DNA of 64,000 bases from Vicinamibacterales bacterium (GTDB lineage Bacteria; Acidobacteriota; Vicinamibacteria; Vicinamibacterales; JAMQPK01). Positions 10,592-60,949 of this stretch are shown piece after piece. Below the pieces are notes generated by a model that saw nothing but the letters and a program-made list of their open reading frames with translations, was not told the origin of the DNA and ran no database searches. Made by a program: the position numbers and the translations under genes. The DNA is taken from NCBI GenBank assembly GCA_035937795.1, contig DASZHO010000051.1:35290-99289 (forward strand), given 5' to 3'. Position 1 is the stretch's first letter. Each line of letters opens with the position of its first letter.

Positions 10592-11386
10592 CTAGCCGAG
10601 CTTCTGGAGAACTACCTGGATGCCTTCTCGGACGATCGTCATGTCACTCTGGAGAGCCGTCACGTCCTTCCGGATCCCCGTCACGTCCCCCTGAAGACTC
10701 GTCACATCCTTCCGGATCCCCGTCACGTCCCCCTGAAGACTCGTCATATCCTTCCGGATCCCCGTCACGTCCCCCTGAAGACTCGTCACATCCTTCCGAA
10801 CGCCCGTCACATCCTTCCGAACGCCCGTCACATCCTTCCGGATCCCAGTCACGTCCCCCTGAAGACTCGTCACATCCTTCCGAACACCGGTCACGTCCTT
10901 CCGGATCCCTATCACGTCCCCCTGGAGACCCGTCACATCCTTCCGAATCCCCGTCACGTCCCCCTGAAGACTCGTCACATCCTTCCGAACGCCCGTCACG
11001 TCCTTCCGGATCCCCATCGCGTCCCCCTGGAGACCCGTCACGTCCTTCCGGATCCCCATCACGCCCCCCTGGAGACCCGTCATGTCCTTCCGGATCCCCA
11101 TCACGGCCCCCTGGAGACCCGTCACATCCTTCCGGATCCCCATCACGTCCCCCTGGAGACCCGTCACATCCTTCCGGAGAGCCGTCACGTCCCCCTGAAG
11201 AATGTCGATACGGTTGTGTACCACGGCGAAGTTTTGATCTACGCCGGCGAACCGCTCGTCAAGCATTTCTGCCTGTGCGCGGAAACGCTTCTCGAGAATT
11301 CTGTCGAAGCTGTCGAGAAAGGCGTCGAATTTTTTCACTCTCTCCTCGAGCGCGTCGACGCGGGCGGCCGATGTCCTTTGCGGCAT
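10592..11386 (-). CDS. Heptad-repeat coiled-coil protein of unknown function (27 consecutive near-identical heptads)
   Basis: I place the start at the ATG at 11386-11384 (MPQRTSAARVDALEERVKKFDAFLD...) rather than at the ORF-track start. After an about 60-aa helical N-terminus come 27 heptads of the form G-I-R-K-D-V-T / S-L-Q-G-D-V-T. Hydrophobic residues follow the 3/4 spacing of coiled-coil a/d positions. The protein ends IVREGIQVVLQKLG. Confidence 0.65.
   Translation of the reverse strand: MPQRTSAARVDALEERVKKFDAFLDSFDRILEKRFRAQAEMLDERFAGVDQNFAVVHNRIDILQGDVTALRKDVTGLQGDVMGIRKDVTGLQGAVMGIRKDMTGLQGGVMGIRKDVTGLQGDAMGIRKDVTGVRKDVTSLQGDVTGIRKDVTGLQGDVIGIRKDVTGVRKDVTSLQGDVTGIRKDVTGVRKDVTGVRKDVTSLQGDVTGIRKDMTSLQGDVTGIRKDVTSLQGDVTGIRKDVTALQSDMTIVREGIQVVLQKLG
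10637..11203 (-). repeat. 21-bp tandem repeat array (27 units, two alternating unit types) encoding the heptads
   Basis: Plus-strand units cgtcacRtccttccggatccc and cgtcacgtccccctgaagact alternate with few substitutions. Both strands stay open across the array, which is why the track shows a 442-aa plus-strand ORF here. Confidence 0.9.
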
Positions 11387-11625
11387 GGCCTTGCCCGATT
11401 GCGAACGCCGTGCCGGACGACGGTAGCATCGTCGCCTCGCGAAAACAACGAGGACTGGGCGGCCGTCGCTTTTTCTGCGAGCGCGTCGAGCAGACAACAT
11501 CGCAGAATCCGCTCCGGACCACGCGCACACACTCCCGGTGGGTTATCTGCAATGGTGAAGCACGTCGTTGATGAACGCGAGGTCGACGTTGCGCACCGGC
11601 AGATTGGGGTCTGTAAATTTCCTGG

Positions 11626-13329
11626 TTACGTGCTGATTTTCTTCCAGTTCTTAGCCAGATGCTCCGCCGTCCGCCACGCGAGGGCTTGCGCGGTCAGCGT
11701 AGGATTGTGCGCGCCGCTGGTGCCCATGACGCTGGCGCCGAGGATGCCGAGGTTCGGCGCTTCGTGCGAAAAGCCCCACGCATCGGCGACGTTGGTCTCG
11801 GGGTTGGCGCCCATCCGCGTGCCACCGTAGGCGTGCGTCGTCGGACCCATCGTGCCGACCGGGCCGCGCTGCACCGCGATCGCCCCGGCCGCGCGATACC
11901 ATTGCTCCATCTTGCCCTGGATGAACGCGGCCGATTTGCGCTCGTTCTCCTTGTAGTCGGCGGTGATCCGGCAGACGGGCGAACCAAGCGGATCCTTCAC
12001 GGACGGATCGAGGTCGAGATAATTATCTTCGTACGGCAAGGTCGTCTTCTGCAGATATGCGCTGTGCCAGCGGTCCGCGTTGGCGTGGATAAAGCTTTTC
12101 CACGCCGATCCCCAGACGGGCGCTTTGCCGAAGGTGCTCATGCTCGCCGCGCTGATCGGCCGGCGGTCGGAATAGACAAACATGTTGCCGCCGCCGATGA
12201 AATCCAACGATCCGTGCTCAAAATTATCGTCGGCCCAATCGTCGATCGCAACGCCCTGCGCAGGCAGGCCGTACCAATTGTTCAGGTTGAATGGAAACAG
12301 CGCGGTGACGCCGGCGCCCTGATTGTGGCTGAAATAGTGACGTCCCACCTGTCCATGGTTATTCGAGAGGCCGTTCGGAAATGCCTTCGACTTGGACAGC
12401 AGCAGCGTGCGGACGTTCTCGTACGTGTAAGTGGCGAGCAAAACCACGGATGACGGCTGAAAGTACGTCTCCCTATCCTTTATATAAGTCACGCCGCTGA
12501 CGCGGCCGTTGGCGTCCACGTTGATCCCGGTCACGTGCGCTTCAGTCACCACGGCCAGCTTGCCGGTTTTCTGCGCCTTCGGAATCGTCGTGACCGCGGT
12601 CGAGCCTTTCGCGCTGACGTGACAGCCGCCGCGGTTGCAATAGCCGTGGTACACGCAGCCGGAGCGATTGCCATAGGCCTTGCTATTGATTGCCGCCGGC
12701 CCGGGAAACGGATGCCAGCCGAGGCCGTGGGCGACCGACGCCATCTTGTCGTGCCACTCGCTCCAGCGCAGCGGCGGCATCGGGTACTCGCGCTTGCGGG
12801 GCCCCTCAAAAATATTCCCGCGCGGATCGATCGCGCCGCTGATGTTCCCTGCCTTCCCCGAGACGCCAATCTCCTGCTCGACGATGTCGTAGTAGGGTTC
12901 GAGGTCTTCGAGGGCGATCGGCCAGTCTTCCACCGTTGAGCCCTTCGGGATGCGCGACGCGCCGTAGCGCCTCGTGGTTTCGCTGACAACCTTGAAATCC
13001 CACGGGTTGAGCCGCCAGCTCTGCGCCCAATAGTGAAGGGACGTTCCGCCGACAGCGTTCATCATCGGATGGATCGCGGGGCGGGGCGAGTACCCTGTGC
13101 TTGCGTTGGGCCGATGGGTGGGGACTTCGTGCTGAGCTTTCTGCACAGCCTGCGGCCAGGCGCGGAAATTATTTCTGATTTCGTCAGGCGCAAAATCCTT
13201 TGGGGCCAACCAGGTGCCCGCTTCCAAGCCGACGACTTCGATGCCGGCTTGAGTGAGCGGAAGGACGGCGACGCCGCCGGTGGCTCCAAGGCCGATGACG
13301 ATGACGTCTGTTTTTTTCAGAGTCGGCAT
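11626..13329 (-). CDS. GMC-family FAD oxidoreductase (gluconate 2-dehydrogenase flavoprotein-like large subunit)
   Basis: Rossmann FAD motif VIVIGLGATGGVAVLPLTQAGIEVVGLEAG and a GMC-type C-terminus (HAYGGTRMG...HNPTLT). I prefer the ATG at 13329 (MPTLKKTDV) because a GAGG lies about 10 nt upstream. The ORF track starts at a GTG at 13344. Confidence 0.85.
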   Translation of the reverse strand: MPTLKKTDVIVIGLGATGGVAVLPLTQAGIEVVGLEAGTWLAPKDFAPDEIRNNFRAWPQAVQKAQHEVPTHRPNASTGYSPRPAIHPMMNAVGGTSLHYWAQSWRLNPWDFKVVSETTRRYGASRIPKGSTVEDWPIALEDLEPYYDIVEQEIGVSGKAGNISGAIDPRGNIFEGPRKREYPMPPLRWSEWHDKMASVAHGLGWHPFPGPAAINSKAYGNRSGCVYHGYCNRGGCHVSAKGSTAVTTIPKAQKTGKLAVVTEAHVTGINVDANGRVSGVTYIKDRETYFQPSSVVLLATYTYENVRTLLLSKSKAFPNGLSNNHGQVGRHYFSHNQGAGVTALFPFNLNNWYGLPAQGVAIDDWADDNFEHGSLDFIGGGNMFVYSDRRPISAASMSTFGKAPVWGSAWKSFIHANADRWHSAYLQKTTLPYEDNYLDLDPSVKDPLGSPVCRITADYKENERKSAAFIQGKMEQWYRAAGAIAVQRGPVGTMGPTTHAYGGTRMGANPETNVADAWGFSHEAPNLGILGASVMGTSGAHNPTLTAQALAWRTAEHLAKNWKKIST

Positions 13330-13346
13330 GATTCGCTGCCTCACGT

Positions 13347-13386
13347 GGGCTCAGGGCTCAAGGCTCAGGGCTCAAGGCTCAGGGCT
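13347..13386. repeat. Heptamer tandem array RGGCTCA x5 plus a partial unit
   Basis: gggctca gggctca aggctca gggctca aggctca gggct. It fills the gap between the subunit-3 stop and the GMC start. On the coding (minus) strand it reads (TGAGCCY)n, and the first TGA is the actual stop of the upstream gene. Confidence 0.9.
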
Positions 13387-14056
13387 TCGAGAACATCACG
13401 TAGTCGTACGCGCTCTTGTGGTTCGCCTTCGCCGGCGCGGACATGCTCTGCTCGCTCGCGGCGACCGAGAGGCGGACGCCGGGATAGGCAATCAGATCCC
13501 AGCCGACCATGCCGGCGTTGCCGCCGTAAATCGGATCGCAGAACATGCCTTGCAGCGTGTGAGCGCGGATCAGGTTGAAAAATGCAGCCGAGCTCGGAAT
13601 GAACCCGAGCTCGACGTCCTGCTCCATTTCACTGAGCACGGCGTTCTGTTGATTGACGCCAAGGTCTCCGAATGAACGGGCGGACGGTTCCTTCGACCGC
13701 GCGTAGACATTGATCGCAGCAAGGCCCACCGAATAGTCATCGCGATACGACGCGAGCGCTCCGTCGAGCGCGTTATCGATGTACCGTGCGGCGCGCGCTT
13801 CTGTCGCGCCAGGGCCGAGCTCGTCGGTGGGCACGAGCCGCGCGCAGATCGCCTCGAGCGTGGCGAGCTCGGTTGCCGTGAGCGCACCGCCGTCGGCTAA
13901 GATCGGGTTTTGGCGGACGATGCCGGCTTGCGCCTGGGTCACGGCGAGGAGCCCGCGGCGGAAGAGCAGCACCCGACTCAATTCGGGAAGCCCCACGACG
14001 GCGACTCCGGCGAGCCCGGCCCGCTTCAGCCATTCGCGACGCGAAACCTCGACCAT
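13379..14056 (-). CDS. Gluconate 2-dehydrogenase subunit 3-family small subunit with a TAT signal
   Basis: 225-aa ORF with the twin-arginine signal SRREWLKRAGLAGVAVVG. It lies directly upstream of the GMC flavoprotein on the same strand, the usual pairing for this family. Confidence 0.7.
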   Translation of the reverse strand: MVEVSRREWLKRAGLAGVAVVGLPELSRVLLFRRGLLAVTQAQAGIVRQNPILADGGALTATELATLEAICARLVPTDELGPGATEARAARYIDNALDGALASYRDDYSVGLAAINVYARSKEPSARSFGDLGVNQQNAVLSEMEQDVELGFIPSSAAFFNLIRAHTLQGMFCDPIYGGNAGMVGWDLIAYPGVRLSVAASEQSMSAPAKANHKSAYDYVMFSKP

Positions 14057-20900: not shown

Positions 20901-21080
20901 GCGACCGGCGCTGGATCGGGCGCACGCAATTCGGTGGGCACGGCCGTGGCCGGCGGCATGCTGGCCAGCACGTTCCTGTCAATCGTCTTCATCCCGGTTC
21001 TCTATGTCATCATTCGAACGATTGCGCCGGGCAAGATCCGGCATTCGGCCGCGCCGGTGGAAGGAGCCGCGCATGCGTAA
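17946..21080 (+). CDS. RND (HAE1/AcrB-type) efflux permease
   Basis: 1044 aa. The N-terminus MFTDVFIRRPILATVCSLLITLAGAISIPNLPIGRYPELAPPSVSV is a canonical AcrB start. The 12-TM architecture has two large periplasmic loops. Confidence 0.95.
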   Translation: MFTDVFIRRPILATVCSLLITLAGAISIPNLPIGRYPELAPPSVSVGAFYTGANAEAVESAVTTPIESVINGAQGMTYMTSASTNSGVSSITATFEIGRDADLAAVDVQNRVNSSLGRLPAEVRTNGVTVTKSSSGFLAALGFYSDNNRYDSLFISNYVDRYVRDTLKRVPGVADVIIFGERRFAMRLWLDPSKLAGRGLTAGDVTNALREQNVQVAAGSVGAEPSSSDQMYQLSVRAAGRLSEANQFEDIVVKTGKDGALVRVKDVGRVELGAEDYSSRLRFAGVEASGVGITLLPSANALETFRGLMAEMSRLDQQFPPGLKWQLAFDNVSIVRESIIEVLITLAEAIALVILVMFLFLQNWRSTLIPAITIPVSLVGTFAFIKLLGFSINTLTLFGIVLATGIVVDDAIVVIENIERHVGQFGKTAHEAASDAMREVFSAVVVIGIVLVSVFLPIAFFPGTTGRMYQQFSITITFAVVLSVFNAITFTPSLAALLLEGETHEHGRFFTGVNRVIDGGTAVYVRTVHRAIGFKWVMLAVFVAALGATYVVYRAVPGAFVPSEDEGYFITIVQAPSGASIEYTTDIMKQAEALYNKQPEIAAVFSVAGFSFSGAASNGGLMFVRLKGFDERQGKEHSLETVINRVRGPLMGIPGGLIIPTAPPPIQGLSAFGGFQFEVLDLVGGDIGQLASVTQQVAAAGNQSGRVAGLFSSFTANDPQLVVTVDRDRARSLGLPISQVTDALTVLLGSQYVNDFDFNNRAYRVYVQGDERFRAKPDDLKQYYARASNGDMVPLSSVVKLSETTAPSVINHFNLFRSTEITGSAVPGVSSGQALQIMSDIAHNALPQGFDFAWAGLSLEEIKSGSQAIYLFALSILLVYLVLAAQYESWILPLIILLGVPLAVFGALSAQYLRGFSNDVFCQVGLVMLIGLAAKNSILIVEFAEQLRGQGRSIVDAAIESARIRLRPILMTSFAFILGVLPLALATGAGSGARNSVGTAVAGGMLASTFLSIVFIPVLYVIIRTIAPGKIRHSAAPVEGAAHA

Positions 21081-22386
21081 GCGTGTCCTGCCGGCTGGCG
21101 CGGTGTTGATGGCCACGATCCTGGCGGCCGCCGCGCCGGCACAGGCGCAAACGCCGCCAGCGCAAGCGCCGCCAGCGCCACAGATGGAGAGCGTGTCGTT
21201 CGAAGAGGCCGTTGAGCGTGCGTTGAAGAACAACCCGACGATTGCGCAGGCCGCCGAAGCCGTGCTGCGCGCGGAGGGGCTGCTGCGGCAGGCGCGCGCG
21301 GCGACGCGGCCGGCGGTGAACGCCACTCTCAGCAATACAACGCTCAACACCGGCACCTCGTTCAACGGCATCGTCGTGATACCCCGCAACCAGTCGACAA
21401 TTTCCGGCGATCTCAGCATGCCGGTGCTGGCGCCGGCGCGGTGGGCGGCGGCCAGCCAGGCGCGCGATCAGGTCGAGGTCGCCAACCTGTCGACCGCGGA
21501 TACGCGAAAACAGATCGCCGCGGCTACCGGGCAGGCCTATCTTGCCGTTATCACTCAGCACCGCCAGCTCGAGGTGAATCAGCGCGCACTTGACGCCGCG
21601 AGGGCGCATCTCGACTACGCACAGCGATTGCTCGCGCAAGGCGCTGGCACGCGCCTGAACGAGCTGCGCGCGGCTCAGGAAGTAACGTCAGACGAGGCGC
21701 GGCTGGAAGATGCGGGGCTCGCCGTCCGGCGAGCGCAGGAGGCCCTCGGCGTGCTGATCGCAGCCAATGGACCGGTGGACGCGGCGACCGAGCCGACGTT
21801 CGACATTCCGCCCGCGACGGCCGTCGCCGACGAAACATCGTGGATGGCCACACGCACCGACGTGCGGCTTTCGACGGCCACCGAGCGCGCCTTCGAGCGC
21901 GTGTGGCACGACAGCCGCAAGGACTATTACCCCAATGTCACCGCGGCGTTCGATCCGCAGGCGCTCGCGCCCAGCGGTGCGTTTGCTCCATCCAGAAGCT
22001 GGCGTTTCACGGTTTCCCTCTCGCAGCCGATTTTCGACAGCGGCCAGCGGAGCGGCCTCGCGAAGGTCCGCGAGGCGGCCGCCAAAACCTCGCAGTTTGC
22101 GCTCACAAGCGTCCAGATTCAGGCGCGATCCGAAGTGCGGCTGGCGCAGGAAACGATTCGAAGCACCGAGCGCTCGCTTGCCAGCCAGCGGCTTGCCGCG
22201 CAGCAGGCCGGCGAGGTGTTGAGCATCACCAACACTGCCTTCCAAGCGGGCGCGACGACCAACCTCGAAGTCATTGACGCGCAACGATCGGCGAGAGACG
22301 CGGAGGCGGAAGCGGAGATTGCGGCCGACGCGGTCCGACGCGCGCGGCTGGATTTGCTGACCGCGCTGGGGAAGTTCCCTCAGTAG
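21073..22386 (+). CDS. TolC-family outer membrane factor
   Basis: The start is set at ATG 21073 (MRKRVLPAGAVLMATILAAAAPAQA), overlapping the pump stop (ATGCGTAA). The sequence has tandem TolC-type helical repeats and is the last gene of the efflux operon. Confidence 0.85.
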   Translation: MRKRVLPAGAVLMATILAAAAPAQAQTPPAQAPPAPQMESVSFEEAVERALKNNPTIAQAAEAVLRAEGLLRQARAATRPAVNATLSNTTLNTGTSFNGIVVIPRNQSTISGDLSMPVLAPARWAAASQARDQVEVANLSTADTRKQIAAATGQAYLAVITQHRQLEVNQRALDAARAHLDYAQRLLAQGAGTRLNELRAAQEVTSDEARLEDAGLAVRRAQEALGVLIAANGPVDAATEPTFDIPPATAVADETSWMATRTDVRLSTATERAFERVWHDSRKDYYPNVTAAFDPQALAPSGAFAPSRSWRFTVSLSQPIFDSGQRSGLAKVREAAAKTSQFALTSVQIQARSEVRLAQETIRSTERSLASQRLAAQQAGEVLSITNTAFQAGATTNLEVIDAQRSARDAEAEAEIAADAVRRARLDLLTALGKFPQ

Positions 22387-22425
22387 GCTGTAGGCTCTCG
22401 GCTCTCGGCTCTAATCTCAGGATCA
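22384..22425. repeat. Heptamer tandem array (TAGGCTG TAGGCTC TCGGCTC TCGGCTC TAATCTC AGGATCA)
   Basis: It begins exactly with the TAG stop of the TolC gene and ends 10 nt before the SDR start codon. Confidence 0.8.
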
Positions 22426-26425: not shown

Positions 26426-28255
26426 ATGAAACTCCTCTACTCCTATCTGCGCCACTACCGTTGGCTGATCGCGCTCGCGCTGGTGCTGGCGACGATCAAC
26501 CAGGTGTTTTCCCTGCTCGATCCCCTGATTTTCCGCTACGTCATCGACCGCTACGCCACGAAGTTCGCCGAGTACACAACGGGGCAGTTTTTTCGCGGCG
26601 TCAGCCTTCTGCTGGCTGCCGCCGTCGGCGTGGCGTTCGTCTCACGCGTCGCCAAGAACTTCCAGGATTACTACATCAACCTGATTACCCAGCGGCTCGG
26701 GGCCGAGCTGTACTCCGACGGGATTCATCACTCGCTGGAGCTCCCCTATTCCGTCTTCGAAGATCAGCGGAGCGGCGAAACGCTCGGGAAGCTGCAGAAG
26801 GTGCGCTCGGATGTCGAGAAGCTGATCTCGGCGGCGATCAACGTCCTGTTCACGTCGCTCATCGGCGTCATCTTCGTGATGATCTACGCGTTCAGCGTGT
26901 ACTGGCTGATCGCGCCGGTGTACTTCCTGACGATCCCCGTGCTCGGCATCGTCAGCTCGGTGCTGAGCAAGCGGATCAAGACGATCCAGAAAGTGATCGT
27001 GGCGGAGACCGCCGCGCTCGCCGGATCCACGACCGAGTCGCTGCGGAACATCGAGCTCGTCAAGAGCCTGGGGCTGGGCCAGCAGGAGATTCAACGCCTG
27101 AACGCCACGACCGGCAAGATCCTGCAGCTCGAATTGAAGAAGGTGAAATACCTGCGCAGCCTCAGCTTCATCCAGGGCACGATCGTGAACTTTCTGCGGA
27201 CGAGCATCCTATTTCTGATGCTCTACCTGATTTACGTCCGCGCGATCACGGTCGGCCAGTTCTTCTCGCTCTGGATCTACTCGTTCTTCATCTTCGGGCC
27301 GCTGCAGGAGCTGGGCAACATCATCAACGTCTACCGGGAGACCGAAGCGTCGCTGAACGTCTTCGAAGGCATCCTGCAGATTCCCAAGGACGCGAAACCG
27401 GTGAGCCCGCTGCCGCTCGACGATTTGCGGCGGCTGGATTTCGATCGCGTGACGTTTCAGCACCAGTCGGCGACGGCGCCTGCGGTCAGCGATATCTCCT
27501 TCGGCGTGAAGCGGGGCGAGACAGTCGCGTTCGTGGGCCCATCCGGCGCCGGCAAAACCACGCTCGTGAAATTGCTGGTCGGATTGTATCCGCCGGGCGC
27601 CGGGCGGATTCTCTACAACGGCATCTCGAGCGACGAGGTCGATCTCGACGTGCTCCGGGAGCGAATCGGGTTCGTGACCCAGGACACGCAGCTCTTTTCC
27701 GGGACGATCCGCGAGAATCTGCTGTTCGTGAATCCGAAGGCGTCGGATGCGGAGTGCCTCGAAGCGCTGCACAGGGCCGCGTGCGACAGCCTGCTGGCGC
27801 GGGCATCCAAGGGCCTCGGTACGGTGATCGGCGAAGGCGGCGTGAAAGTATCGGGCGGCGAGAAGCAGCGGCTGTCGATCGCGCGGGCGCTGCTGCGCCA
27901 CCCGCAACTCCTCGTTTTCGACGAAGCGACCTCCTCGCTCGACTCGCTCACCGAGGAGGGCATCGTCGACACGATTCGAGACGTCGCGAGCACGCGGGAG
28001 AGCATCACGATCCTGATTGCCCATCGACTCTCGACGATTCTGCACGCCGATCGCATCTACGTGCTCGAGCGCGGCCGGATCGTGGAAACCGGCCGGCACG
28101 ACGAGCTGGTGGAGTCGAAGGGCCTCTACTATGCGATGTGGAGGCAGCAGATTGGAGAGCGCCGGGGGACCGAGACGGCGCCAGCGGGGCTCAAGGGTCA
28201 AAGCTCAGCGGGCTCAGGGCTCAGGGCTGGGTCCGCCGTGACGGTGCATTCTTGA
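26426..28255 (+). CDS. Fused TMD-NBD ABC exporter (MsbA/MdlB-like)
   Basis: Six N-terminal TM segments, then Walker A GPSGAGKTT, the signature VSGGEKQRLSIARALL and Walker B LLVFDEATSSLD. The last about 35 aa (GTETAPAGLKGQSSAGSGLRAGSAVTVHS) are low complexity and are encoded by a heptamer array. Confidence 0.9.
   Translation: MKLLYSYLRHYRWLIALALVLATINQVFSLLDPLIFRYVIDRYATKFAEYTTGQFFRGVSLLLAAAVGVAFVSRVAKNFQDYYINLITQRLGAELYSDGIHHSLELPYSVFEDQRSGETLGKLQKVRSDVEKLISAAINVLFTSLIGVIFVMIYAFSVYWLIAPVYFLTIPVLGIVSSVLSKRIKTIQKVIVAETAALAGSTTESLRNIELVKSLGLGQQEIQRLNATTGKILQLELKKVKYLRSLSFIQGTIVNFLRTSILFLMLYLIYVRAITVGQFFSLWIYSFFIFGPLQELGNIINVYRETEASLNVFEGILQIPKDAKPVSPLPLDDLRRLDFDRVTFQHQSATAPAVSDISFGVKRGETVAFVGPSGAGKTTLVKLLVGLYPPGAGRILYNGISSDEVDLDVLRERIGFVTQDTQLFSGTIRENLLFVNPKASDAECLEALHRAACDSLLARASKGLGTVIGEGGVKVSGGEKQRLSIARALLRHPQLLVFDEATSSLDSLTEEGIVDTIRDVASTRESITILIAHRLSTILHADRIYVLERGRIVETGRHDELVESKGLYYAMWRQQIGERRGTETAPAGLKGQSSAGSGLRAGSAVTVHS
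28186..28231. repeat. Degenerate GGCTCAG-type heptamer array inside the 3' end of the ABC exporter ORF
   Basis: The sequence is ggggctcaagggtcaaagctcagcgggctcagggctcagggctggg. It contains the same gggctcagggctcaggg core as the array at 63231-63283. Confidence 0.75.
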
Positions 28256-28369
28256 TTTAAAGCGCGTAACAATCATTCCTCCTCTCGCTGAGCCGTTCCT
28301 TCAGATTCCACCATCACGGAAGACCTGGGCCAACTACAATGAACGCCACCAGCTCTTCTGGGGTTCCCC

Positions 28370-31033
28370 ATGGTCCTTGCTGCCGGCACTCGCCTCGGCC
28401 CGTACGAAATTCTCGCGCCGCTCGGCGCGGGCGGCATGGGCGAGGTCTATCGCGCCCACGACACCAAACTTGGGCGTGATGTCGCCTTGAAGTTCCTGCC
28501 AGACAGTTTCGTGCACGATCCCGATCGCGTGGCCCGTTTCCGCCGGGAAGCGCAGGTGCTCGCAGCGCTAAATCATCCGCACATCGGCGCGATCTACGGC
28601 CTGGACGAAGCCAGTGGCCAGCAATTCCTTGTGCTGGAACTCATCGATGGCCAGACGTTGGCGGATCGCCTTGCGAAGGGGCCGCTTCCACTCGACGAAA
28701 CGCTCGCGATCGCGACACAGATAGCGGACGCTCTCCAAGCGGCTCATGAGAAGGGCATCATCCATCGCGATTTGAAGCCAGCGAACATTGCGCTGACGAG
28801 GGACGGCAACGTGAAAGTGCTCGACTTTGGCCTCGCCAAGCCGACCGAAGCGGCGACCGCAGTGCCAGTCGATCTGGCGAACTCGCCGACGTTGACGTCG
28901 CCCGCGATGATGTCCGGCGTTGGCACGATCCTCGGCACAGCCGCGTATATGAGCCCTGAACAGGCGAAGGGCAGAGCGGCGGACACACGTAGCGATATCT
29001 GGGCGTTCGGCTGCGTCCTGTTTGAGATGCTAACCGGCCGGAAGTTATTCGCCGGTGAGACGATCTCCGACACGCTGGCGGCGGTGCTGAAGGACGAGCC
29101 AGACCTGACGCGAGCGCCAGCCCGCGTGCGACGCCTGCTTCGCGCATGCTTACAAAAGGACCCCAAGCAGCGACTGCAAGCGATTGGTGATTCGCGCCTG
29201 TTGCTCGAAGATGCGGCAGAAGCAGAACCAGAGACCAAGAGCAACGTGCGATGGGCGCTGGCCGCAGCAGCGTTCGCCATCATTGCTGCCCTCGCGTTGT
29301 GGGCGCCGTGGCGCCGCCCCGCACCCAACAATGCACAAGCTGCACTACAACTGGATCTCGATCTGGGAGCGGCCGTGGCGCCAACCAACCTCGGCGCGGA
29401 CGCGCTCCTTTCACCAGACGGAACCCGGCTTGTCTTTGTCGCCCAAGGTTCGAACGGAAAGTCGCGATTGTTGACTCGTCGTGTCGACCAGTCGCAGCCC
29501 GTTGAGCTGCACGGCGGTGAAGGAGCGTACGCACCGTTCTTCTCTCCGGATGGACATTGGGTGGCCTTCTTCGCGGGAGGAAAACTGAAGAAAACGTCCG
29601 TGGACGGCGGCGAGCCGGTGATTCTGTGCGAGGCCCCCGCCGGCCGCGGCGGCAGCTGGGGTGAAGACGGCAATATCGTTGTTGCGCTAGATTCACAAGC
29701 GGGCCTGTCTCTCGTTCCCTCCGAAGGTGGGAAGGTTGTTCCGCTGACGACGCTGGCGCCGGGGGAAAACAGCCATCGTTGGCCTCAAGTCCTGCCCGGC
29801 GGCAAGATTGTCCTCTTCACTTCGAACACGACCTTCGGGAATTTCGACGAAGCCAGCATCAGCGCCCTGTCTTTGGCGGATCATAAATGGAAGATCGTGC
29901 TGGAGCGAGCGGGCATGTATCCGCGGTACGTGCCGAGCGGTCATCTGATCTACGTGACCAAGGGGACCCTATTCGCCGTGCCGTTTGACCCCGTCAGCGC
30001 GGAGGTTCGCGGGCGACCCGCGGCCCTGGTCGAGGATGTCTCGAACGATACGACGTACGGGTTTTCGCGGCTCGATTTCTCTGTCGGCGGAATGTTGCTC
30101 TACCGGAGAGGCAGGACGGAAGGCTTGAGAACCGTTCACTGGATGGATAGCACCGGGGGAATAGAGGCTCTAGAAATCGGGCCTGCACTTTACATGTTCC
30201 CCCGCATCTCGCCGGACGGCAGCAAACTGATCTGGATGGTAAACCAGGGGCCGAGCGCAGATCTGTGGATCTACGATTGGCAGCGCGGCAGCAAAACCCG
30301 GCTGACGGACGGCAAGAGTGTGAACGCCTATCCGGTATGGAGCCCAGACGGACGGTATGTCGTCTTCAGTTCGTCGGGAGGCATGTTCTGGACGCGCGCG
30401 GACGGCGCCGGGAAGCCGCAACAGTTGACGGCGAGCAAGGCTCTCCAGTTTCCGACGTCCTTCACACCAGACGGCGGACGGTTGGTCTTTTCAGAATTGA
30501 ATCCCGGTGGCGGTCTCATCCAGACCGTGCTCCTTGACGGAAGCTCCGGGCAGTTGCGCGCCAACAAGCCGGAGGTGTTCCTGCAAACGGTGTCCGCAGT
30601 GCCGTTCCCGGCTTTCTCGTCGGACGGGCGATGGCTGGCCTACGCGGATGCGGAGTCCGGAGGCTATGAGGTGTATGTTCGTGCGTTTCCGGACAAGGGC
30701 ACGAGGTGGCTGATCTCGAATGGCGGCGGAACGATGCCGGTGTGGTCGAGAAACGGGCGCGAGCTGTTCTATCGAACCGAAGACAGTCAGATCATGGTGG
30801 CAACGTACGCAGTGAAGGGCGACACCTTCGTTGCTGACAAGCCTCGAGTGTGGTCAGAGCAGCGACTGGCGAATACGGGCTTGACTCCCAACTTTGACCT
30901 CGCTCCGGACGGGAAACGCTTCGCGGTGCTGATGACGGCGGGAAGCCCCGTGCCGCCCGAAGCGCAAAGCCACGTCACACTGGTGATGAACTTCTTCGAC
31001 GAGCTGCGGCGGATCGCGCCCGCAGCGAAATGA
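28370..31033 (+). CDS. Ser/Thr protein kinase with a TM segment and a C-terminal TolB-like beta-propeller
   Basis: Hanks kinase motifs are present: GAGGMGEVYRA, HRDLKPANI, DFGLA and AYMSPEQ. A TM helix (WALAAAAFAIIAALALWAPW) follows. Repeated SPDG/FSPDG/WSPDG propeller motifs run to the C-terminus. Confidence 0.85.
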   Translation: MVLAAGTRLGPYEILAPLGAGGMGEVYRAHDTKLGRDVALKFLPDSFVHDPDRVARFRREAQVLAALNHPHIGAIYGLDEASGQQFLVLELIDGQTLADRLAKGPLPLDETLAIATQIADALQAAHEKGIIHRDLKPANIALTRDGNVKVLDFGLAKPTEAATAVPVDLANSPTLTSPAMMSGVGTILGTAAYMSPEQAKGRAADTRSDIWAFGCVLFEMLTGRKLFAGETISDTLAAVLKDEPDLTRAPARVRRLLRACLQKDPKQRLQAIGDSRLLLEDAAEAEPETKSNVRWALAAAAFAIIAALALWAPWRRPAPNNAQAALQLDLDLGAAVAPTNLGADALLSPDGTRLVFVAQGSNGKSRLLTRRVDQSQPVELHGGEGAYAPFFSPDGHWVAFFAGGKLKKTSVDGGEPVILCEAPAGRGGSWGEDGNIVVALDSQAGLSLVPSEGGKVVPLTTLAPGENSHRWPQVLPGGKIVLFTSNTTFGNFDEASISALSLADHKWKIVLERAGMYPRYVPSGHLIYVTKGTLFAVPFDPVSAEVRGRPAALVEDVSNDTTYGFSRLDFSVGGMLLYRRGRTEGLRTVHWMDSTGGIEALEIGPALYMFPRISPDGSKLIWMVNQGPSADLWIYDWQRGSKTRLTDGKSVNAYPVWSPDGRYVVFSSSGGMFWTRADGAGKPQQLTASKALQFPTSFTPDGGRLVFSELNPGGGLIQTVLLDGSSGQLRANKPEVFLQTVSAVPFPAFSSDGRWLAYADAESGGYEVYVRAFPDKGTRWLISNGGGTMPVWSRNGRELFYRTEDSQIMVATYAVKGDTFVADKPRVWSEQRLANTGLTPNFDLAPDGKRFAVLMTAGSPVPPEAQSHVTLVMNFFDELRRIAPAAK

Positions 31034-51932: not shown

Positions 51933-52895
51933 ATGACGAATCTGCAGTGGACCGTGACAGCGGTAGATGCGGGGATGACGATCGACAAGTTTCTGGCGGC
52001 GGCCGGACGGCTTGGCTCACGGTCGCGAGCGGCGGCCGCGCGGCAGAGGGGAAAAGTTTTCGTGAACGGCGCAGAGGCGGGTCCTGCGCTGGCGGCGCTG
52101 CGATTGTCCGCGGGTGACACCGTGCGGGTGTGGGAGGACCGTCCGGGCAGCGCCCGGCGGCGCGCTTTTCCCTTCAAATCTGGCGAGCTGCAGATTCTCT
52201 ATGAGGATCCGTCCTTGATCGTGTTGAACAAGCCGGCGGGGCTGCTGGCGGTGCCGCTCGAGCGGCGCGGGGAAGAAACGTCGATTCTCGATCAGCTCCA
52301 AGCCCACCTGCGCTCGCACGGCAAGCGCAAGCCGCTGGTCGTTCACCGAATCGACCGCGACACCTCCGGCGTCGTGTTGTTCGCGAAAGACGGCCGCACG
52401 CAGGCCGCGCTGAAAGCGCAATTTCGCGAGCGCACGCCGGATCGCGTTTACCTCGCCGTCGTCTACGGCCACCCGAGACCGGAGGCGGGGACCTGGCGGG
52501 ACCATCTCGTATGGGACGCCAAGGCGTTGATTCAAAAGGAAACACATCCGCGCGATCCGCGGGCGGCGGAGGCAATCAGCGAGTACAAGGTGATGGAAAC
52601 GTTCGGAGCCACATCGCTCGTCGAGGTTCGGCTCAAGACGGGTAAACGCAATCAAATCAGAATTCAGGCGAGGCTCCGCGGCCACACGCTCGTAGGCGAG
52701 GTCCGTTACACCTATGGGCCGGACGAGCTGCGTCCGGTGGCGTTCAAGCGCCAGGCGCTCCACGCCTGGCGTCTGAGCTTCCGGCACCCGGCCGATAACC
52801 GCGTGATGAAATTCGAGGCGCCGATTCCGTCTGATTTGAAAAAACTGATCGCCGGGCTCAGATTAAGTAAGAAGGACGGAAGTAAGAAGGAGTGA
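51933..52895 (+). CDS. rluD: RluA-family pseudouridine synthase (RluD-like, with an S4 domain)
   Basis: S4-like N-terminus, the catalytic HRIDRDTSGVVLFAK motif and KTGKRNQIRIQA. The last 12 codons (LRLSKKDGSKKE) are encoded by a purine-rich repeat. Confidence 0.9.
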   Translation: MTNLQWTVTAVDAGMTIDKFLAAAGRLGSRSRAAAARQRGKVFVNGAEAGPALAALRLSAGDTVRVWEDRPGSARRRAFPFKSGELQILYEDPSLIVLNKPAGLLAVPLERRGEETSILDQLQAHLRSHGKRKPLVVHRIDRDTSGVVLFAKDGRTQAALKAQFRERTPDRVYLAVVYGHPRPEAGTWRDHLVWDAKALIQKETHPRDPRAAEAISEYKVMETFGATSLVEVRLKTGKRNQIRIQARLRGHTLVGEVRYTYGPDELRPVAFKRQALHAWRLSFRHPADNRVMKFEAPIPSDLKKLIAGLRLSKKDGSKKE

Positions 52896-52920
52896 AGTAA
52901 GAAGGAATGAAGGAGTGTGG
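52861..52920. repeat. Purine-rich tandem repeat, agtaagaagga x3 at 15-bp period (one C in 60 nt)
   Basis: Copies of agtaagaagga are at 52866-52876, 52881-52891 and 52896-52906. The repeat spans the rluD stop and the convergent MFS gene stop (52923). The related string aaggagtgaagg recurs at 54845-54856. Confidence 0.85.
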
Positions 52921-52922: not shown

Positions 52923-54272
52923 TCATTCTTGCTCGGGCGGCGTCATCAGCTGCGCCGCGCTCTGCAGACCGGTTGCCATCTGCGGCAGGATGCCCATCCG
53001 CACGTAAATCGGACGGACCACCGAGCGGATCTCGGGCAGTTCCTGCCTGAACCAGACGGCGGCAGCCGCACACAGGATCCCGCTCAGGAGGACGGTGTGC
53101 GGCGCGCCAATCCGCGCGGACAACGCGCCGGCCAGCAGGCTGCCGAAGGGGGCGGTGCCCAGAAAGCACATCGTGTAGAAGCTCATCACGCGTCCCCGCT
53201 TCTCATCGTCGACGATGGTCTGGATGACCGTGTTGCTCGAGGCCATCTGCACCATCATGCCAGAGCCGACGAACGTCATGAAGATGAGCGACAGCCACAG
53301 ATGGCGGGAAAACGAGAAGGCGACGAGCGCGAGGCTGAACGTCGTGGTCGCAATCAGGATGACGCGGCCCAGACCCACCACCGATTTTCGCCCGGCCAGC
53401 CACAGAGCTCCTGCCAGCGCTCCGCAACCGGAGGCGGTCATCAGAAAGCCCAGCGTATGCGGGCCGCCGTGCAGCACGTCGTTGGCGAATACCGGCATCA
53501 GCACCGCGTACGGCATGCCGAGCAGGCTCACCAGCGCCAGCAACGTCATCAGGGACCGGATCGGCCTGAATCCCGTCACGTAGCTCAGCCCTTCCTTGAA
53601 CTGGGTCAGCACCGTCGCGCTATGCGCCCGCCTGTGCGTCTTCCGGACGCCGCGCATCATCAGGAGCGCCACGATCACCGCGAAGTAGCTGAAACCGTCG
53701 ATCAGGAAACACCACCCTTCACCCGACCAGGCGATGACGAGGCCGGCGATTGACGGACCGATCAGCCGCGCGGCGTTGAACATCGACGAGTTGAGCGCAA
53801 TCGCGTTGGACAAATCCTCCTTGTCTTCGATCATTGTTACCAGGAACGCCTGACGGCCGGGCATGTCGAAGGCGTTCACGACGCCCTGAACAGCGTTCAG
53901 CAGAATGACGGCGGTCACGGTGATGTGTCCTGTCAACATCAGGCCGGCCAGGGCGAACGACTGCAACATCGAGATCACCTGCGTGCCGACCAGCAGCTTG
54001 TGGCGATCCCACCGGTCGACGTAGGCGCCGGCAAAGGGTCCCATGACAAATCCGGGAAACTGGCCGGCGAACCCAACCACGCCGAGCAGAAGCGCCGAGC
54101 CGGTGAGGCGATACACCAGCCAGCTCGTCGCCGTCATGGTCATCCAGCTGCCAATCAGCGAGACGATCTGACCTCCGAAGAACAAGCGGTAATTGCGGTA
54201 GGAAAGCGCCCGGAGCATGAAGGAAATACGGGAGGGCATCAGGGAGATTTTATAAGAGTTTTCAGGGCACAA
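52923..54272 (-). CDS. MFS transporter (EntS/MFS_3-like)
   Basis: About 12 TM helices, with the family-typical start LRALSYRNYRLFFGGQIVSLIGSWM. The TTG at 54272 has GAGGAG 6 nt upstream. Internal ATGs at 54239 and 54218 are alternative starts. Confidence 0.85.
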   Translation of the reverse strand: MCPENSYKISLMPSRISFMLRALSYRNYRLFFGGQIVSLIGSWMTMTATSWLVYRLTGSALLLGVVGFAGQFPGFVMGPFAGAYVDRWDRHKLLVGTQVISMLQSFALAGLMLTGHITVTAVILLNAVQGVVNAFDMPGRQAFLVTMIEDKEDLSNAIALNSSMFNAARLIGPSIAGLVIAWSGEGWCFLIDGFSYFAVIVALLMMRGVRKTHRRAHSATVLTQFKEGLSYVTGFRPIRSLMTLLALVSLLGMPYAVLMPVFANDVLHGGPHTLGFLMTASGCGALAGALWLAGRKSVVGLGRVILIATTTFSLALVAFSFSRHLWLSLIFMTFVGSGMMVQMASSNTVIQTIVDDEKRGRVMSFYTMCFLGTAPFGSLLAGALSARIGAPHTVLLSGILCAAAAVWFRQELPEIRSVVRPIYVRMGILPQMATGLQSAAQLMTPPEQE

Positions 54273-56506: not shown

Positions 56507-57991
56507 TTACCGCTCGAATGACTCGCGGCGGCCGGAGGCCGACAGCTTGATGATGTACTGCTCGGGATGATCCCAGAACAATTTTCTCAGCTCGCCGAGG
56601 CTGCTCGCCCCGCCGTAGCTGATCGACGAGCAGAGATGCTTCAGCATGCCGGCAATTACCGGCCGCACCGACCCGCGCAGGGGCACGCTCACCTCGAGAC
56701 CCTCGGCGCCGAGCGTATCCACGTCGATCGCATCGGAGTCCTCGACGTCGAGCCGATCCACCATCGCGCCGATCGACGCCATCCCCCTGAATACCTTGAA
56801 CGGCACGCGCACCACTTTCTGCGACTCGGGCAGCACGACGGATTTGTGAACCGTCTCGCCTGGCGTCTCCGTGGTGCCGGCAAACGCATTGCCCAGCATC
56901 ACCGTGTCGCCACCGAAGAGCAGCGCCTCGATGATGCCGCCGTCGCGGCGAATCCCGCCGTCGGCAATCAGCGGAACCCTGTCACCAACGGCCATCTGGC
57001 ATTCGACGAGCGCCTGAAGCTGCGGCACGCCGAAGTTCGTGTTCAAACGGGTCGTGCACCCGCCGCCGGGCCCGATCCCCACTTTGATGCCGTTGACGCC
57101 GCGCTCCGCGAGATACCTCGCACCCTCGGCCGTGGCCACATTGCCGGCAATCATTTCGAAATCACCGAGCTTCGCACGGAACGCTTCGACGGCCTTCGCC
57201 ATCACCACCGAATGGCCGTGGGCGATATCGATGACGAGCACGTCGACGCCCGCGCGGATGAGCTCCGCGGCGCGCTCGAGGAAATCGCCTTTGGCGCCGA
57301 TCGCGGCGCCGACTCGAAGGCGACCCTGCGCGTCGCGCGACGCAAACGGCAAACGCTTCTGATGAACGATATCCCGGGAGGTGATCAGCCCTGTCAGCAC
57401 GCCGTTCGGGCCCACCAGCGGCAGCTTCTTGATTTTTCGCTTCGCCATCACCCGCTCGGCCTCGTCGAGTGAGATGTCGCCTTCGTGCAGCACGAGCTTG
57501 TCGAGCGGCGTCATCCGCTCGCCCACCTGCTGCTGGCCGCCCACGAAGCGGGCGTCGCGCGTGGTGAGCAACCCTCTCAGCTTTCGATCGCCATCCACGA
57601 CCACAAGCGTTCCCACACCCGAGCGCTCCATGGTCTCGGTCGCCTCGCGCAGGCTGGCCGTCGCACCGATCGTGTAGGGGTCCGGAATGACGCCGTGCTG
57701 GGTGCGCTTGACGACCTCGACTTCGCGCACCTGTGCGGCAATGTCGCCGCCGCGGAAGCCGCGGTCGATGATGCCAATCCCGCCCTCTTCGGCCTGGACG
57801 ATGGCCATGGCGGCGCGGGTAATCGTATCCATGTTGGCGGACACGATCGGGTGTTTCAGCGTGAGATGCTCCGACAGACGCGACGACAGATCGATGGTCC
57901 TGGGATCGCGCCGCTCGAGCACGCCGAAATGCGGCGAGAAGAGAAAGTCGTCGAACGTACAGCCATGGACCTCGGCCAGCAGATCGGTCAT
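56507..57991 (-). CDS. guaB: IMP dehydrogenase family protein with a CBS pair
   Basis: The motifs are FDDFLFSP...VSANMDTIT, an inserted CBS pair, DIAHGHS, GNVAT, the catalytic loop [18 protein letters not shown] and GMAS. The loop differs slightly from the classical GSICTTR. Confidence 0.8.
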
Positions 57992-58023
57992 TGCGACATC
58001 ATATCCAAATAGACCTAACGAGT

Positions 58024-59592
58024 ATGATTACCTCAGTGACCACCCGCCGGGTTTTCCATGCCGTGTACGCGCTGCTGGGCCTGTTCCTCGCATCGTTGTT
58101 GAGCGGGTTGAGCGGGTTGAGCGGGTTGAGCGGCGTAGTGTCGGGACAGGCGCCCGGTTCCGGTGGGTCCGTGACCGTGCTCTCCCGCGACGGCCGGCGT
58201 CCGCTGCCGGCCGTGGAAGTGCAGGGCCACAGCATGGTGGGGCTGGACGACCTCGCCAACCTGTTTCAGCTCACCATCCGTGAAGATGCCGCTCCGCGCG
58301 CGGTCACTGTGACCTACAAAGATCGGACGATCGTGTTGACGCCCGATCAGGCGCTGGCGTCGATGTCGGGGCGCCTCGTCTCGCTGCCGGCGCCGCTGAC
58401 GCGGCAGGGCCGCCGCTGGCTGGTACCGGTGGAATTCGCCGGCGTTGCGTTGCCGCTCATCTACGACACGAAGCTTGACTACCGCCCGGACTCGCGGCTG
58501 CTGATCGTGGGCGATATGCGGGTGCCTCACGTCGTGGCGCTGTACGACGACACCGGCAACATTCTGCGAGTCACGCTGGGCATCACACCAAAGGCGATGA
58601 CCAGCATCGTTCAGGATCAGAACCGGCTGCTGGTACGAATCGACGCCGATGCGCTCGATCCTGCGCTGCTGCCGCCGCCCCAGCAGAATTTCCTGACCGG
58701 CATTCGAGCCACCGAGCCGAACACGATCCAGATGGATCTCGGCTCGCGCTTTGCGTCGTACCGCTCGTCGACACCGATTTCCACTGGCGCCGCGGCGCAG
58801 CTGACGATCGATCTGCTGCCGGCGGCGGGAGAGTCCACGTCTGCAGGCCCAGCACCGGCGCCGCCCGAGCCGAACGCGTCGAACCTTCCGGTGTTCGGCG
58901 GCGCACGATCGTCGATTCGCACCATCGTGCTCGATCCGGGGCACGGCGGCGACGATAGCGGGGTGAAGGGCACGGCCGGCATCCTGGAGAAGGACGTGGC
59001 GCTGGCGGTGGCCAGGCGCGCGAAAAGCGTGATCGAGGGCCGGCTCGGCATTCGAGTACTGTTGACGCGCGATGAAGACACCAAACCCGATGCCGACACG
59101 CGCGCCGCGGTTGCGAACAACAACAAGGCCGATCTGTTCATCAGTCTGCACGCGAACGGGTCGCCTCGCGAGTCGGCCCAAGGCGCGCTGATTTACTACC
59201 TGAATCTCGATCATTCAGGCGAAGAAGCGCGGCGGCAATCGCAGGCCGACCGCGAGGTGCTCTCGATATACGGCGGCGGCAGCCGGGAATTCGCGCTCCT
59301 GGACTGGGAGCTGGCGCAGGCGGCGCACGTTCAGGAATCCGCGGCGTTTGCGGGCCTCATCGAACAGAAGATGCGCGCCATGGCCAACGTGTCGGCGGTG
59401 AGCGTGCAGAAAGCACCGATGCGCGGGCTCACCGCCGCCAACATGCCGGCGGTGCTCATCGAAATGGGCTACCTGTCGAACCCGGCCGAGGAGAAAACGC
59501 TCTCGTCGGCGGAATTTCAGAGCGGTGTGGCGCAAGCCATCGCGGAAGCCGTGATCGCCTTTCGGGACTATCTCGAACAAGCGCCAAGGTGA
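58024..59592 (+). CDS. N-acetylmuramoyl-L-alanine amidase (Amidase_3, AmiC-like) with an AMIN-type N-terminal domain
   Basis: The start is set at MITSVTTRRVFHAVYALLGLFLASLL. The catalytic-domain motifs are VLDPGHGGDDSGVKG, ISLHANG and EMGYLSNP. Confidence 0.85.
   Translation: MITSVTTRRVFHAVYALLGLFLASLLSGLSGLSGLSGVVSGQAPGSGGSVTVLSRDGRRPLPAVEVQGHSMVGLDDLANLFQLTIREDAAPRAVTVTYKDRTIVLTPDQALASMSGRLVSLPAPLTRQGRRWLVPVEFAGVALPLIYDTKLDYRPDSRLLIVGDMRVPHVVALYDDTGNILRVTLGITPKAMTSIVQDQNRLLVRIDADALDPALLPPPQQNFLTGIRATEPNTIQMDLGSRFASYRSSTPISTGAAAQLTIDLLPAAGESTSAGPAPAPPEPNASNLPVFGGARSSIRTIVLDPGHGGDDSGVKGTAGILEKDVALAVARRAKSVIEGRLGIRVLLTRDEDTKPDADTRAAVANNNKADLFISLHANGSPRESAQGALIYYLNLDHSGEEARRQSQADREVLSIYGGGSREFALLDWELAQAAHVQESAAFAGLIEQKMRAMANVSAVSVQKAPMRGLTAANMPAVLIEMGYLSNPAEEKTLSSAEFQSGVAQAIAEAVIAFRDYLEQAPR
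58099..58134 (+). repeat. 9-bp in-frame tandem repeat (ttgagcggg x3 plus ttgagcggc) encoding LSG x4
   Basis: It is seen directly in the sequence, lies just after the signal-peptide hydrophobic core of the amidase, and is translated as LSGLSGLSGLSG. Confidence 0.85.

Positions 59593-60872: not shown

Positions 60873-60876
<4 letters not shown>
60151..60876 (+). CDS. rph: Ribonuclease PH
   Basis: [16 protein letters not shown]...[20 protein letters not shown]...[19 protein letters not shown]...[19 protein letters not shown] is the canonical Rph sequence. Confidence 0.95.

Positions 60877-60943
<67 letters not shown>

Positions 60944-60949
<6 letters not shown>

Follow-up and report, generated by a model that had tools for sequence, protein, structure and literature searches.

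Tandem arrays of the heptanucleotide GGCTCAR occupy short intergenic spacers in a 64,000-nt stretch of DNA (hereafter the window) from a Vicinamibacterales bacterium of the phylum Acidobacteriota, and members of the same family recur in other Acidobacteriota, both as single arrays and as inverted pairs whose two arms always stand in the same order. With moderate confidence, we read the GGCTCAR arrays as slippage-prone heptanucleotide microsatellites that have partly spread as a palindromic element and are tolerated only between genes.

The source is a metagenome-assembled genome (MAG) from soil, of which the window and 9 kb more were examined. Arrays in the window were detected with Tandem Repeats Finder (TRF) and our own lag-7 period scan, and the flanking genes were named by Pfam. 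Four period-7 arrays had been pointed out in an initial annotation of this DNA, and all four exist (Table 1) and exceed chance: the double unit GGCTCAGGGCTCA, with up to two mismatches, occurs 12 times against 2.45 expected, a count that 0 of 100 shuffles reached. Period 7 gives five runs in the window and each other period from 4 to 12 gives 0–2; likewise, 123 kb of Vicinamibacterales DNA that had not been ascertained by the repeat hold seven period-7 runs against about 0.1 expected, and none for periods 4, 5, 6, 8, 10 and 11. The GGCTCAR family itself is present at three loci within the window, while the related fourth array has a GGCTCTC core (x2.9) at 22391–22412. GGCTCAG and GGCTCAA (C/T in mRNA sense) alternate in the array at 13347, which gives it a 14-nt super-period. 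The single GGCTCAG copies at 44271 and 52853, formerly counted with the family, were rejected as members because isolated GGCTCAG heptamers are at chance level in the window (18 versus 12.1 expected). None of the window arrays overlaps a tRNA or tmRNA prediction.

Table 1. Repeat arrays, associated gene signals and orthologous or composite elements; positions are those of the window, and L numbers denote contigs or loci of other assemblies.
Feature	Location	Strand	Basis or remark
Heptamer array, (YTGAGCC)x5.7 in mRNA sense; + strand GGCTCAR	13347–13386	−	TRF, period scan
TGA stop of gluconate 2-dehydrogenase subunit-3 gene (13379–14056)	13379–13381	−	within the array's first full unit
Shine-Dalgarno (SD) GAGG (13342–13339) and ATG (13329–13327) of GMC oxidoreductase gene (11626–13329)	13327–13342	−	sequence
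Related array TAGGCTG TAGGCTC TCGGCTC TCGGCTC TAATCTC	22384–22425	+	TRF, period scan
GGCTCAR-type array: GGCTCAA GGGTCAA AGCTCAG (degenerate), then GGGCTCA x2.7, perfect	28186–28231	+	TRF
(AAGTWGA)x11, unit unrelated to GGCTCAR, between RNase PH and RdgB/Ham1	60871–60948	+	TRF
Short palindromic form, 2.4 units and inverted partner	63231–63283	.	TRF, fold
Orthologous subunit-3/GMC spacer	L121/L122		four CARAGCC units, TGA lost
Orthologous subunit-3/GMC spacer	L123		seven decayed units
Orthologous subunit-3/GMC spacer	L124		two units
Orthologous subunit-3/GMC spacer	L125		split arrays
Orthologous subunit-3/GMC spacer	L133		about two units
Composite (GGCTCAR)4-GCAAGATCTTCGAG-N7-CTCGAAGGTTTTGC-(YTGAGCC)4	L013, L017, L021, L026 (3243–3332), L030, L048, L054, L065, L067, L068, L093, L117

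The repeat had been taken for genome-specific. A scan with GGCTCARGGCTCARGGCTCA, one genome per species, returned at least 120 loci, all on MAG or metagenome contigs and ascertained by the repeat itself; the family counts that follow refer to the Acidobacteriota loci among the matches listed. Acidobacteriota account for 65 of the 120, in about 38 different MAGs, which rules out genome specificity; they span Vicinamibacteria, Luteitalea, Acidobacteriaceae and Thermoanaerobaculia, and the rest are scattered over other phyla. These 65 loci carry more than 90 family arrays, about 40 more heptamer arrays of other units, and 136 period-7 runs, no other period from 4 to 13 giving more than 13. Called genes contain just 2 of the 58 family arrays that could be classified, compared with a called coding fraction of 0.80. 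A dispersed, intergenic repeat family resembling repetitive extragenic palindromic (REP) sequences, as the initial annotation had supposed, is present.

The inverted pairs among these loci have a strict polarity: 33 are ordered 5′-(GGCTCAR)n...(YTGAGCC)n-3′ and 0 are reversed. About a dozen share the central palindrome GCAAGATCTTCGAG-N7-CTCGAAGGTTTTGC, which recurs in at least four MAG species and, inside one genome, at loci that are unrelated to each other, and a second centre type exists among the pairs; the type-1 centre motif GCAAGATCTTCGAG is absent from the window. The composite centre is asymmetric, with G.U pairs on one strand and A.C mismatches on the other, and this asymmetry is conserved, its orientation having no consistent relation to the direction of the flanking genes. 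The predicted folding energy of composite elements is −86 to −87 kcal/mol, with z from −12 to −14. Rfam 15 at the gathering threshold gave no match in the window or in 10 loci bearing composite elements, and sub-threshold matches were generic eukaryotic miRNA-precursor hairpins only. Palindromic forms lie between convergent genes in eight cases, tandem genes in eight and divergent genes in one, the convergent share (8/17) standing above a background of 15.5% (p = 0.002). Single arrays are distributed as 22 tandem, seven convergent and six divergent.

The arrays are real and not assembly artefacts, because they are reproduced in Joint Genome Institute (JGI) and Logan contigs, which may come from one sample and share reads. 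JGI contig L127 matches the window at 99.97% identity over 13,065 nt, gap-free across the 13347 and 22391 arrays, both of which it repeats exactly; JGI contig L126 matches at 99.8% over 5.8 kb and contains the 63231 element exactly; and Logan contig L128 is 100% identical and terminates inside the 13347 array. Short-read assemblies break in these arrays. L127 terminates inside another repeat, a 21/42-nt tandem array of about 27 copies (10637–11201), which is coding, lies in a minus-strand open reading frame (ORF; 10592–11530, 313 aa) and encodes coiled-coil-like heptapeptide repeats GIRKDVT/GLQGDVT.

The 13347 array fills the minus-strand operon spacer leading from the gluconate 2-dehydrogenase subunit-3 gene to the GMC flavoprotein gene. 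In mRNA sense the region reads ...AAGCCC-UGA-GCC UUGAGCC CUGAGCC UUGAGCC CUGAGCC, then CACGUGAGGCAGCGAAUC-AUG. As first noticed, the array's first TGA is the stop of the subunit-3 gene (13381–13379) and more follow at 7-nt steps (13374, 13367, 13360 and 13353), so that no reading frame stays open beyond 14 nt from the stop. At its other end, the array comes to within 4 nt of GAGG and 17 nt of the GMC ATG, a start with which the JGI gene call in L127 (567 aa) is consistent; the sequence of P0001, a protein annotated at NCBI, equals that of the subunit-3 protein at 100% identity. The claim that arrays sit exactly at gene ends is only half right: the arrays fill short spacers and are equally near the next start.

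Orthologues conserve the block ...GTGrGAGGCAGCGAAnAATGCCGAC, which contains the SD and ATG of the GMC gene, and a YTGAGCC-type array in the same orientation stands directly upstream of it in every orthologue examined (seven spacers). Six of these spacers hold two to seven units, decayed or homogenised to CARAGCC; one of them (L133) was the single true orthologue among four matches of a metagenome scan for a flank-gap-flank pattern, the other three being chance matches. In the most distant relative (L136–L138; 72% protein identity; the same in three assemblies), the spacer is 149 nt long: two arms, (GGCTCAK)4 on the left and (YTRAGCC)6 on the right, flank a 54-nt centre, and the whole folds at −76.5 kcal/mol (z −4.0). 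In an alignment, the window array matches this right arm, directly upstream of the conserved SD/ATG block, and one spacer can be followed from full palindrome to solo arm to remnant. Subunit-3 C-termini differ, FSKP* in the window and FSKA*, FSKAAA*, FSKTGV* or FSKASMTP*, a few codons longer, in orthologues, which identifies the window as a case where the array reached the coding end and donated the stop. That the 13347 array crept to the coding end explains the look of exact placement.

The palindromic form is represented in the window by the 63231 element (GGCTCCA GACTCAG GGCTCAG GGCTCTG, a loop, CCGAGTC CTGAGTC), located between the convergent DAO/Rieske (stop 63224–63226) and AhpC (stop 63290–63292) genes. 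The hairpin that had been proposed here was recovered at 63238–63280 (43 nt; −38.7 kcal/mol, z −3.7; −37.0 kcal/mol for the opposite strand). It fails as a canonical Rho-independent terminator, the role also suggested for it: the G+C-rich hairpin is there, but no U-tract follows, the tails being GUCUCACGCG (+) and GGAGCCCGUG (−), and a terminator consensus scan was empty at this site. The heptamer element is missing from the orthologous DAO/Rieske–AhpC spacers of two relatives (82% and 73% identity); that of L129 has a textbook hairpin with a T5 terminator and that of the other relative (L131) has G+C hairpins. The 63231 hairpin is thus lineage-specific and stands where a terminator would be.

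The array at 28186 is stop-free in the reading direction, and an ABC-exporter ORF (26426–28255) reads through it. Homology of this protein to Protein Data Bank (PDB) structures ends at about residue 575–581 of 609, so that the array encodes a non-homologous tail. The ORF is extended by about 28–34 codons past the end of homology, and the extension is either an annotation artefact or a real disordered tail made by the repeat. The same array lies 139 nt upstream of a Ser/Thr kinase gene (28370–31033). In L095 the same idiosyncratic variant units occur upstream of the kinase orthologue and in L086 there is an array there too, and in both the gene upstream of the kinase spacer is different and divergent; the changed neighbour indicates that the 28186 array travels with the kinase 5′ flank and not with the 3′ end of the ABC gene. 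A separate observation at this spacer is that ACTACAAT is conserved about 30 nt upstream of the kinase ATG (window 28330–28345, L086 ~765–775); possibly this is the −10 element of a promoter, in which case the kinase promoter would lie downstream of the array. The 22384 array opens with the TAG stop of an outer-membrane efflux gene (21004–22386) and stops about 10 nt ahead of the ATG of an SDR gene (22436), and its core at 22391 has two stop-bearing units and otherwise no sense TGA for the upstream gene.

An orientation bias, predicted by the initial annotation, is found among single arrays in operon spacers of relatives, which are TGA-sense in 17 cases and the reverse in five (p = 0.017); one further, unascertained case (L131) agrees. 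The two orientations differ sharply in predicted RNA structure: (GGCUCAR)4, 6 and 8 self-pair through G.U at −11, −15.2 and −24.9 kcal/mol, whereas (YUGAGCC)4, 6 and 8 barely fold (−2.1, −5.0 and −7.3 kcal/mol). When the 13347 array is flipped in silico in place, the minimum free energy of the spacer goes from −11.6 to −25.9 kcal/mol. As they stand, single arrays are no more structured than shuffles (z +0.76 at 13347, −0.24 at 28186, +1.55 at 22391 and +2.81 at 60871). Given this contrast, the TGA-sense bias is equally predicted by all-frame stops, by an unstructured spacer ahead of the ribosome-binding site (RBS) and by survival of the right arm proximal to the RBS. We prefer the latter two because both fit the many copies that offer no TGA to the upstream gene.

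The fixed polarity and the intergenic distribution are observed; how such arrays arise and persist we infer from genome sequence and modelled folds. Replication slippage, whose bias is known for many bacteria, would create and resize the 7-nt tandem repeats. Inheritance and dispersal of the GGCTCAR unit would take place largely in the form of paired arms of a fixed-polarity palindrome, 5′-(GGCTCAR)n-centre-(YTGAGCC)n-3′, and purifying selection would keep the arrays in intergenic spacers, in keeping with the distribution observed. RNA structure may then decide which form survives at a given site. Between convergent genes, the inverted form would stay as a stable hairpin, most likely blocking 3′ exonucleases or read-through transcription, and long hairpin forms may be RNase III substrates. 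Within operons, the hairpin would tend to lose one arm, the kept arm usually lying beside the downstream RBS and appearing in mRNA as (UGAGCCY)n, predicted to be unstructured and closing all three frames. Solo arms would most likely serve as unstructured, stop-rich spacers before the next RBS, and unit number could tune coupling.

Several points weigh against this explanation. Genes at the loci were called with a crude GC3-based caller of our own, and these loci had been ascertained through the repeat itself. Slippage leaves the 33:0 polarity and the conserved G.U/A.C asymmetry of the centre unexplained. A transposase (which was not searched for systematically), a target-site duplication and an empty-site pair were not found, so mobility is only putative. 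No U-tract follows the inspected hairpins (window 63231, L021 and L026). The GGCTCAR arrays show no copy-number polymorphism, being identical in three assemblies that possibly derive from one sample. Finally, all orthologues examined, even one as distant as 72% protein identity, still have a YTGAGCC-type array ahead of the same RBS; this persistence is longer than simple neutral decay suggests and leaves room for selection for a function.

The nearest competitor, possible though clearly less probable, is that the family is a mobile non-autonomous element of the kind of miniature inverted-repeat transposable elements (MITEs) or REPINs, a heptamer-armed palindrome moved by a transposase encoded elsewhere, with the window arrays as functionless solo arms or decayed copies. 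It overlaps the explanation we favour and differs from it in granting no host function and in deriving every copy by transposition. The same arms with a conserved centre at several unrelated loci per genome in several species, the fixed polarity of the inverted pairs, and the presence of the 63231 element in the window but not at the orthologous sites of L129 and L131 all speak for it, and Acidobacteria have been reported with RAYT (REP-associated tyrosine transposase)-like ‘TIRYT’ tyrosine transposases and families of terminal inverted repeats (PMC3733652). However, inspected ends show no target-site duplication and no GTAG/CGTC tag, and no transposase was identified beside any copy, no systematic search having been made; a Pfam scan of 10 window proteins, within the 64 kb plus 9 kb of source genome, gave no transposase. 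Many pairs have unrelated or 6–20-nt loops and resemble local inverted duplications, not copies of one master, and AAGTWGA and other-unit arrays arise in situ without an element.

A more far-reaching version of our explanation, which we think improbable, would make GGCTCAR a phylum-wide, actively dispersing fixed-polarity palindrome with microsatellite arms and length-tunable hairpins, and would place its solo (UGAGCCY)n arms with other NNN-YTGA arrays (AAGTTGA, TAACTGA, MTYCTGA) in a general class of re-initiation spacers at stop/start junctions. If true, the host would use the hairpins at convergent gene ends and within operons, the NNN-YTGA microsatellites, as unstructured spacers with stops in every frame, would set re-initiation efficiency on the next gene, and the class has so far gone unrecognised.

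We judge it slightly less probable still that (UGAGCCY)n is a selected, frame-independent stop, kept after genes to halt read-through or frameshifted ribosomes, as the initial annotation proposed. The closure of all frames within 14 nt at 13347, the 17:5 TGA-sense ratio in operon spacers, the excess of sense-only stops (eight versus two antisense-only) in other-unit operon-spacer heptamers among the loci listed, and the overlap of several arrays with the upstream stop codon would all fit. As a general function it fares badly, since one of the four window arrays is TGA-sense relative to its upstream gene and three are not, the palindrome arm beside the upstream gene is always the stop-free GGCUCAR, divergent-gene spacers also hold arrays (six single, one palindromic), and the arrays are as near the downstream RBS as the upstream stop. 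RNA structure and right-arm retention through descent from a palindrome each predict the same bias, and in L121 the array is still there after its units have lost TGA (CARAGCC). That forward repeats with all-frame stops occur at ORF ends is moreover a logical necessity, as stated for TAACTGA (PMC4679880).

Regulatory roles have been proposed for TAACTGA repeats (PMC4679880) and for Geobacter heptanucleotide elements (PMC2700814), and the arrays could by analogy be bound, as periodic sites in RNA or DNA, by a lineage-specific protein co-regulating the genes beside them. Their place upstream of the same RBS in seven orthologous spacers and upstream of the kinase in three species despite a changing neighbour, the orientation bias, and the predicted single-strandedness, and hence accessibility, of solo arrays as RNA are compatible with such sites. 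Against them, the adjacent genes are unrelated in function (dehydrogenase, ABC exporter and kinase, peroxiredoxin, efflux pump and SDR), the arrays of close relatives drift freely in both unit number and sequence, many different units coexist and no candidate binding protein was identified, and we regard this as quite unlikely. An assembly or sequencing artefact of a MAG, at which contigs of other assemblies stopping in or near the repeats (L128 in the 13347 array, L127 in the 42-mer array) might hint, is effectively refuted by array sequences identical across JGI and Logan assemblies and by homologous arrays at orthologous sites in many independent metagenomes.

Some further candidates were rejected. 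Phase-variable simple sequence repeats do not apply: three arrays (13347, 22391 and 60871) follow a stop and precede the next RBS, the 28186 array is in a non-homologous C-terminal tail, and 7-nt indels spare both flanking genes. Integron attC sites were rejected too, because the GTTRRRY/RYYYAAC core is missing and the genes on either side are ordinary chromosomal genes in synteny. (CUGAGCC)n is complementary to nt 21–27 of 16S rRNA, the 3′ end of primer 27F; we treat this as a coincidence, since about 9% of heptamers match within a 1.5-kb rRNA and ribosomes have this stretch base-paired.

Other heptamer units form arrays as well. In the AAGTWGA array the first unit holds the TAG stop and the last the TTG start of RdgB. 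All differences between the window and L126 (2680–2746) in the aligned array region, namely several substitutions and a deletion of about one unit, fall within this array. The RNase PH/RdgB junction of relatives (L129 9290–9340; L131 9285–9345) is a 4-nt GTGA overlap or a 16-nt spacer, and the AAGTWGA unit equals the ancestral terminal heptamer GAAGTGA, so the array arose in situ out of the stop/start junction. An exact-protein look-up of RNase PH and of an 1180-aa ORF, with start codons of our own guessing, found no record. Separately, other sense-oriented operon-spacer heptamers fit NNN-YTGA, YTGA being a start/stop overlap motif: AAC-YTGA, CCT-TTGA and AGA-TTGA (L026 5108–5272, L040 5541–5581, L119 5880–5917, L120 1344–1440, L049 7593–7621). 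In this small sample, the pattern also fits GCC-YTGA and AAG-TTGA here, TAA-CTGA in Beggiatoaceae and MTY-CTGA in Geobacter.

Two repeats of other periods were also seen. (GTTGAGCGG)x4 at 58098–58133 encodes an in-frame (LSG)x4 in the N-terminal hydrophobic region of ORF 57991–59592, and JGI contig L126 begins about 60 nt downstream of it. The 15-nt repeat (AAGTAAGAAGGAATG)x3.2 (52865–52912), purine-rich and with TAA/TGA in sense orientation, covers the 3′ end of ORF 51933–52895 and the gap to the convergent gene 52923–54272.

Among soil bacteria, Acidobacteriota rank with the most abundant, yet almost all knowledge of them comes from MAGs. A high-copy, hairpin-prone intergenic repeat affects their assembly, with contigs breaking inside it, and their gene calling, with ORFs that read through or are cut by an array and acquire false C-terminal tails, as in the ABC exporter. 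Operon-end prediction is affected as well because the inspected hairpins have no U-tracts. The family provides a comparative case for the 35-year-old question of what bacterial heptanucleotide repeats do, and the sharp contrast in RNA structure between the two orientations gives a handle on it.

The closest known systems are the cyanobacterial short tandemly repeated repetitive (STRR) sequences (Calothrix; Mazel et al., 1990) and the general excess of heptanucleotide simple sequence repeats (Mrazek et al., 2007), both as cited in PMC4692102 and PMC4679880. STRR-type repeats, like GGCTCAR, are tandem 7-nt units in few to tens of copies at many loci per genome, overwhelmingly intergenic, with several unit families per genome, period 7 outstanding and hypervariability between relatives. 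Our arrays share the head-to-tail units, recurrence with period-7 excess, non-coding location and variability between relatives; they differ in the GGCTCAR unit, in their high-G+C acidobacterial hosts and in that a large share of them form inverted pairs of one fixed polarity, some of which have a conserved centre. TAACTGA direct repeats of marine Beggiatoaceae, some Cyanobacteria and Bacteroidetes carry stops in all frames in forward orientation, overlap ORF ends by at most about two units, lie mostly forward and just upstream of the next start, have no predicted RNA structure and show 7-nt indels between strains (MacGregor, 2015; PMC4679880). The 13347 array behaves alike and shares the heptamer with CTGA, but TAACTGA is AT-rich with one inverted repeat among 170 sets, whereas GGCTCAR is often inverted and structured via G.U in the opposite orientation. 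GGGAATC/GGGGAYT repeats of Xanthomonas and Nostoc (2–26 units, intergenic) recur between the same gene pairs in related species with varying length and sequence, and some form inverted pairs that could fold into stem-loops (Rehm et al., 2015; PMC4692102). The family-specific intergenic heptamer, conserved position and inverted pairs are common to both, while those repeats have G-tracts capable of forming G-quadruplexes, GGCTCAR having at most GGG at unit joints and 4-nt loops, and a conserved central palindrome is not reported for them. Geobacter metallireducens has GGACCGG x4 at 49 loci and MTYCTGA x5 at 15 sites (PMC2700814). These too are multicopy elements of four to five tandem heptamers, annotated as putative regulatory elements, and one family ends in CTGA; their units are different and GGACCGG elements lie in genes as well as between them.

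REP sequences, bacterial interspersed mosaic elements (BIMEs) and REPINs, which are RAYT-associated, are dispersed intergenic palindromes mostly between unidirectional or convergent ORFs, often forming inverted dimers with larger hairpins, for which roles in mRNA stabilisation and termination have been proposed (Di Nocera, 2013; PMC3733652). GGCTCAR palindromes resemble them in being dispersed, intergenic and mainly between tandem and convergent gene pairs, and differ in that their arms are microsatellites of variable length and palindromy arises only from inverted arrays. The REP in the malE–malF operon spacer is the classic analogue of an intra-operon hairpin such as that of L136. The 20–40-nt palindromic unit of REPs is lacking, the 13347, 28186 and 22391 arrays being without self-complementarity, and the GTAG/CGTC tag is absent at the inspected ends of elements in the window and its relatives. 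As regards MITEs, elements in relatives have inverted arms, and the inspected copies show no target-site duplication.

A full-text literature search returned no paper linking Acidobacteria with heptanucleotide repeats and none with the repeat string in a relevant context, and the family is apparently undescribed in Acidobacteriota. The initial statement that no description exists is right for the unit and the phylum but not for intergenic heptamer repeats, three-frame stops and inverted pairs, which are published (PMC4679880, PMC4692102, PMC2700814). The GGCTCAR family adds a new case to a kind of bacterial repeat that has long been known and is not a new type of signal; the strict polarity of its inverted pairs and their conserved asymmetric centre are what make it worth recording.

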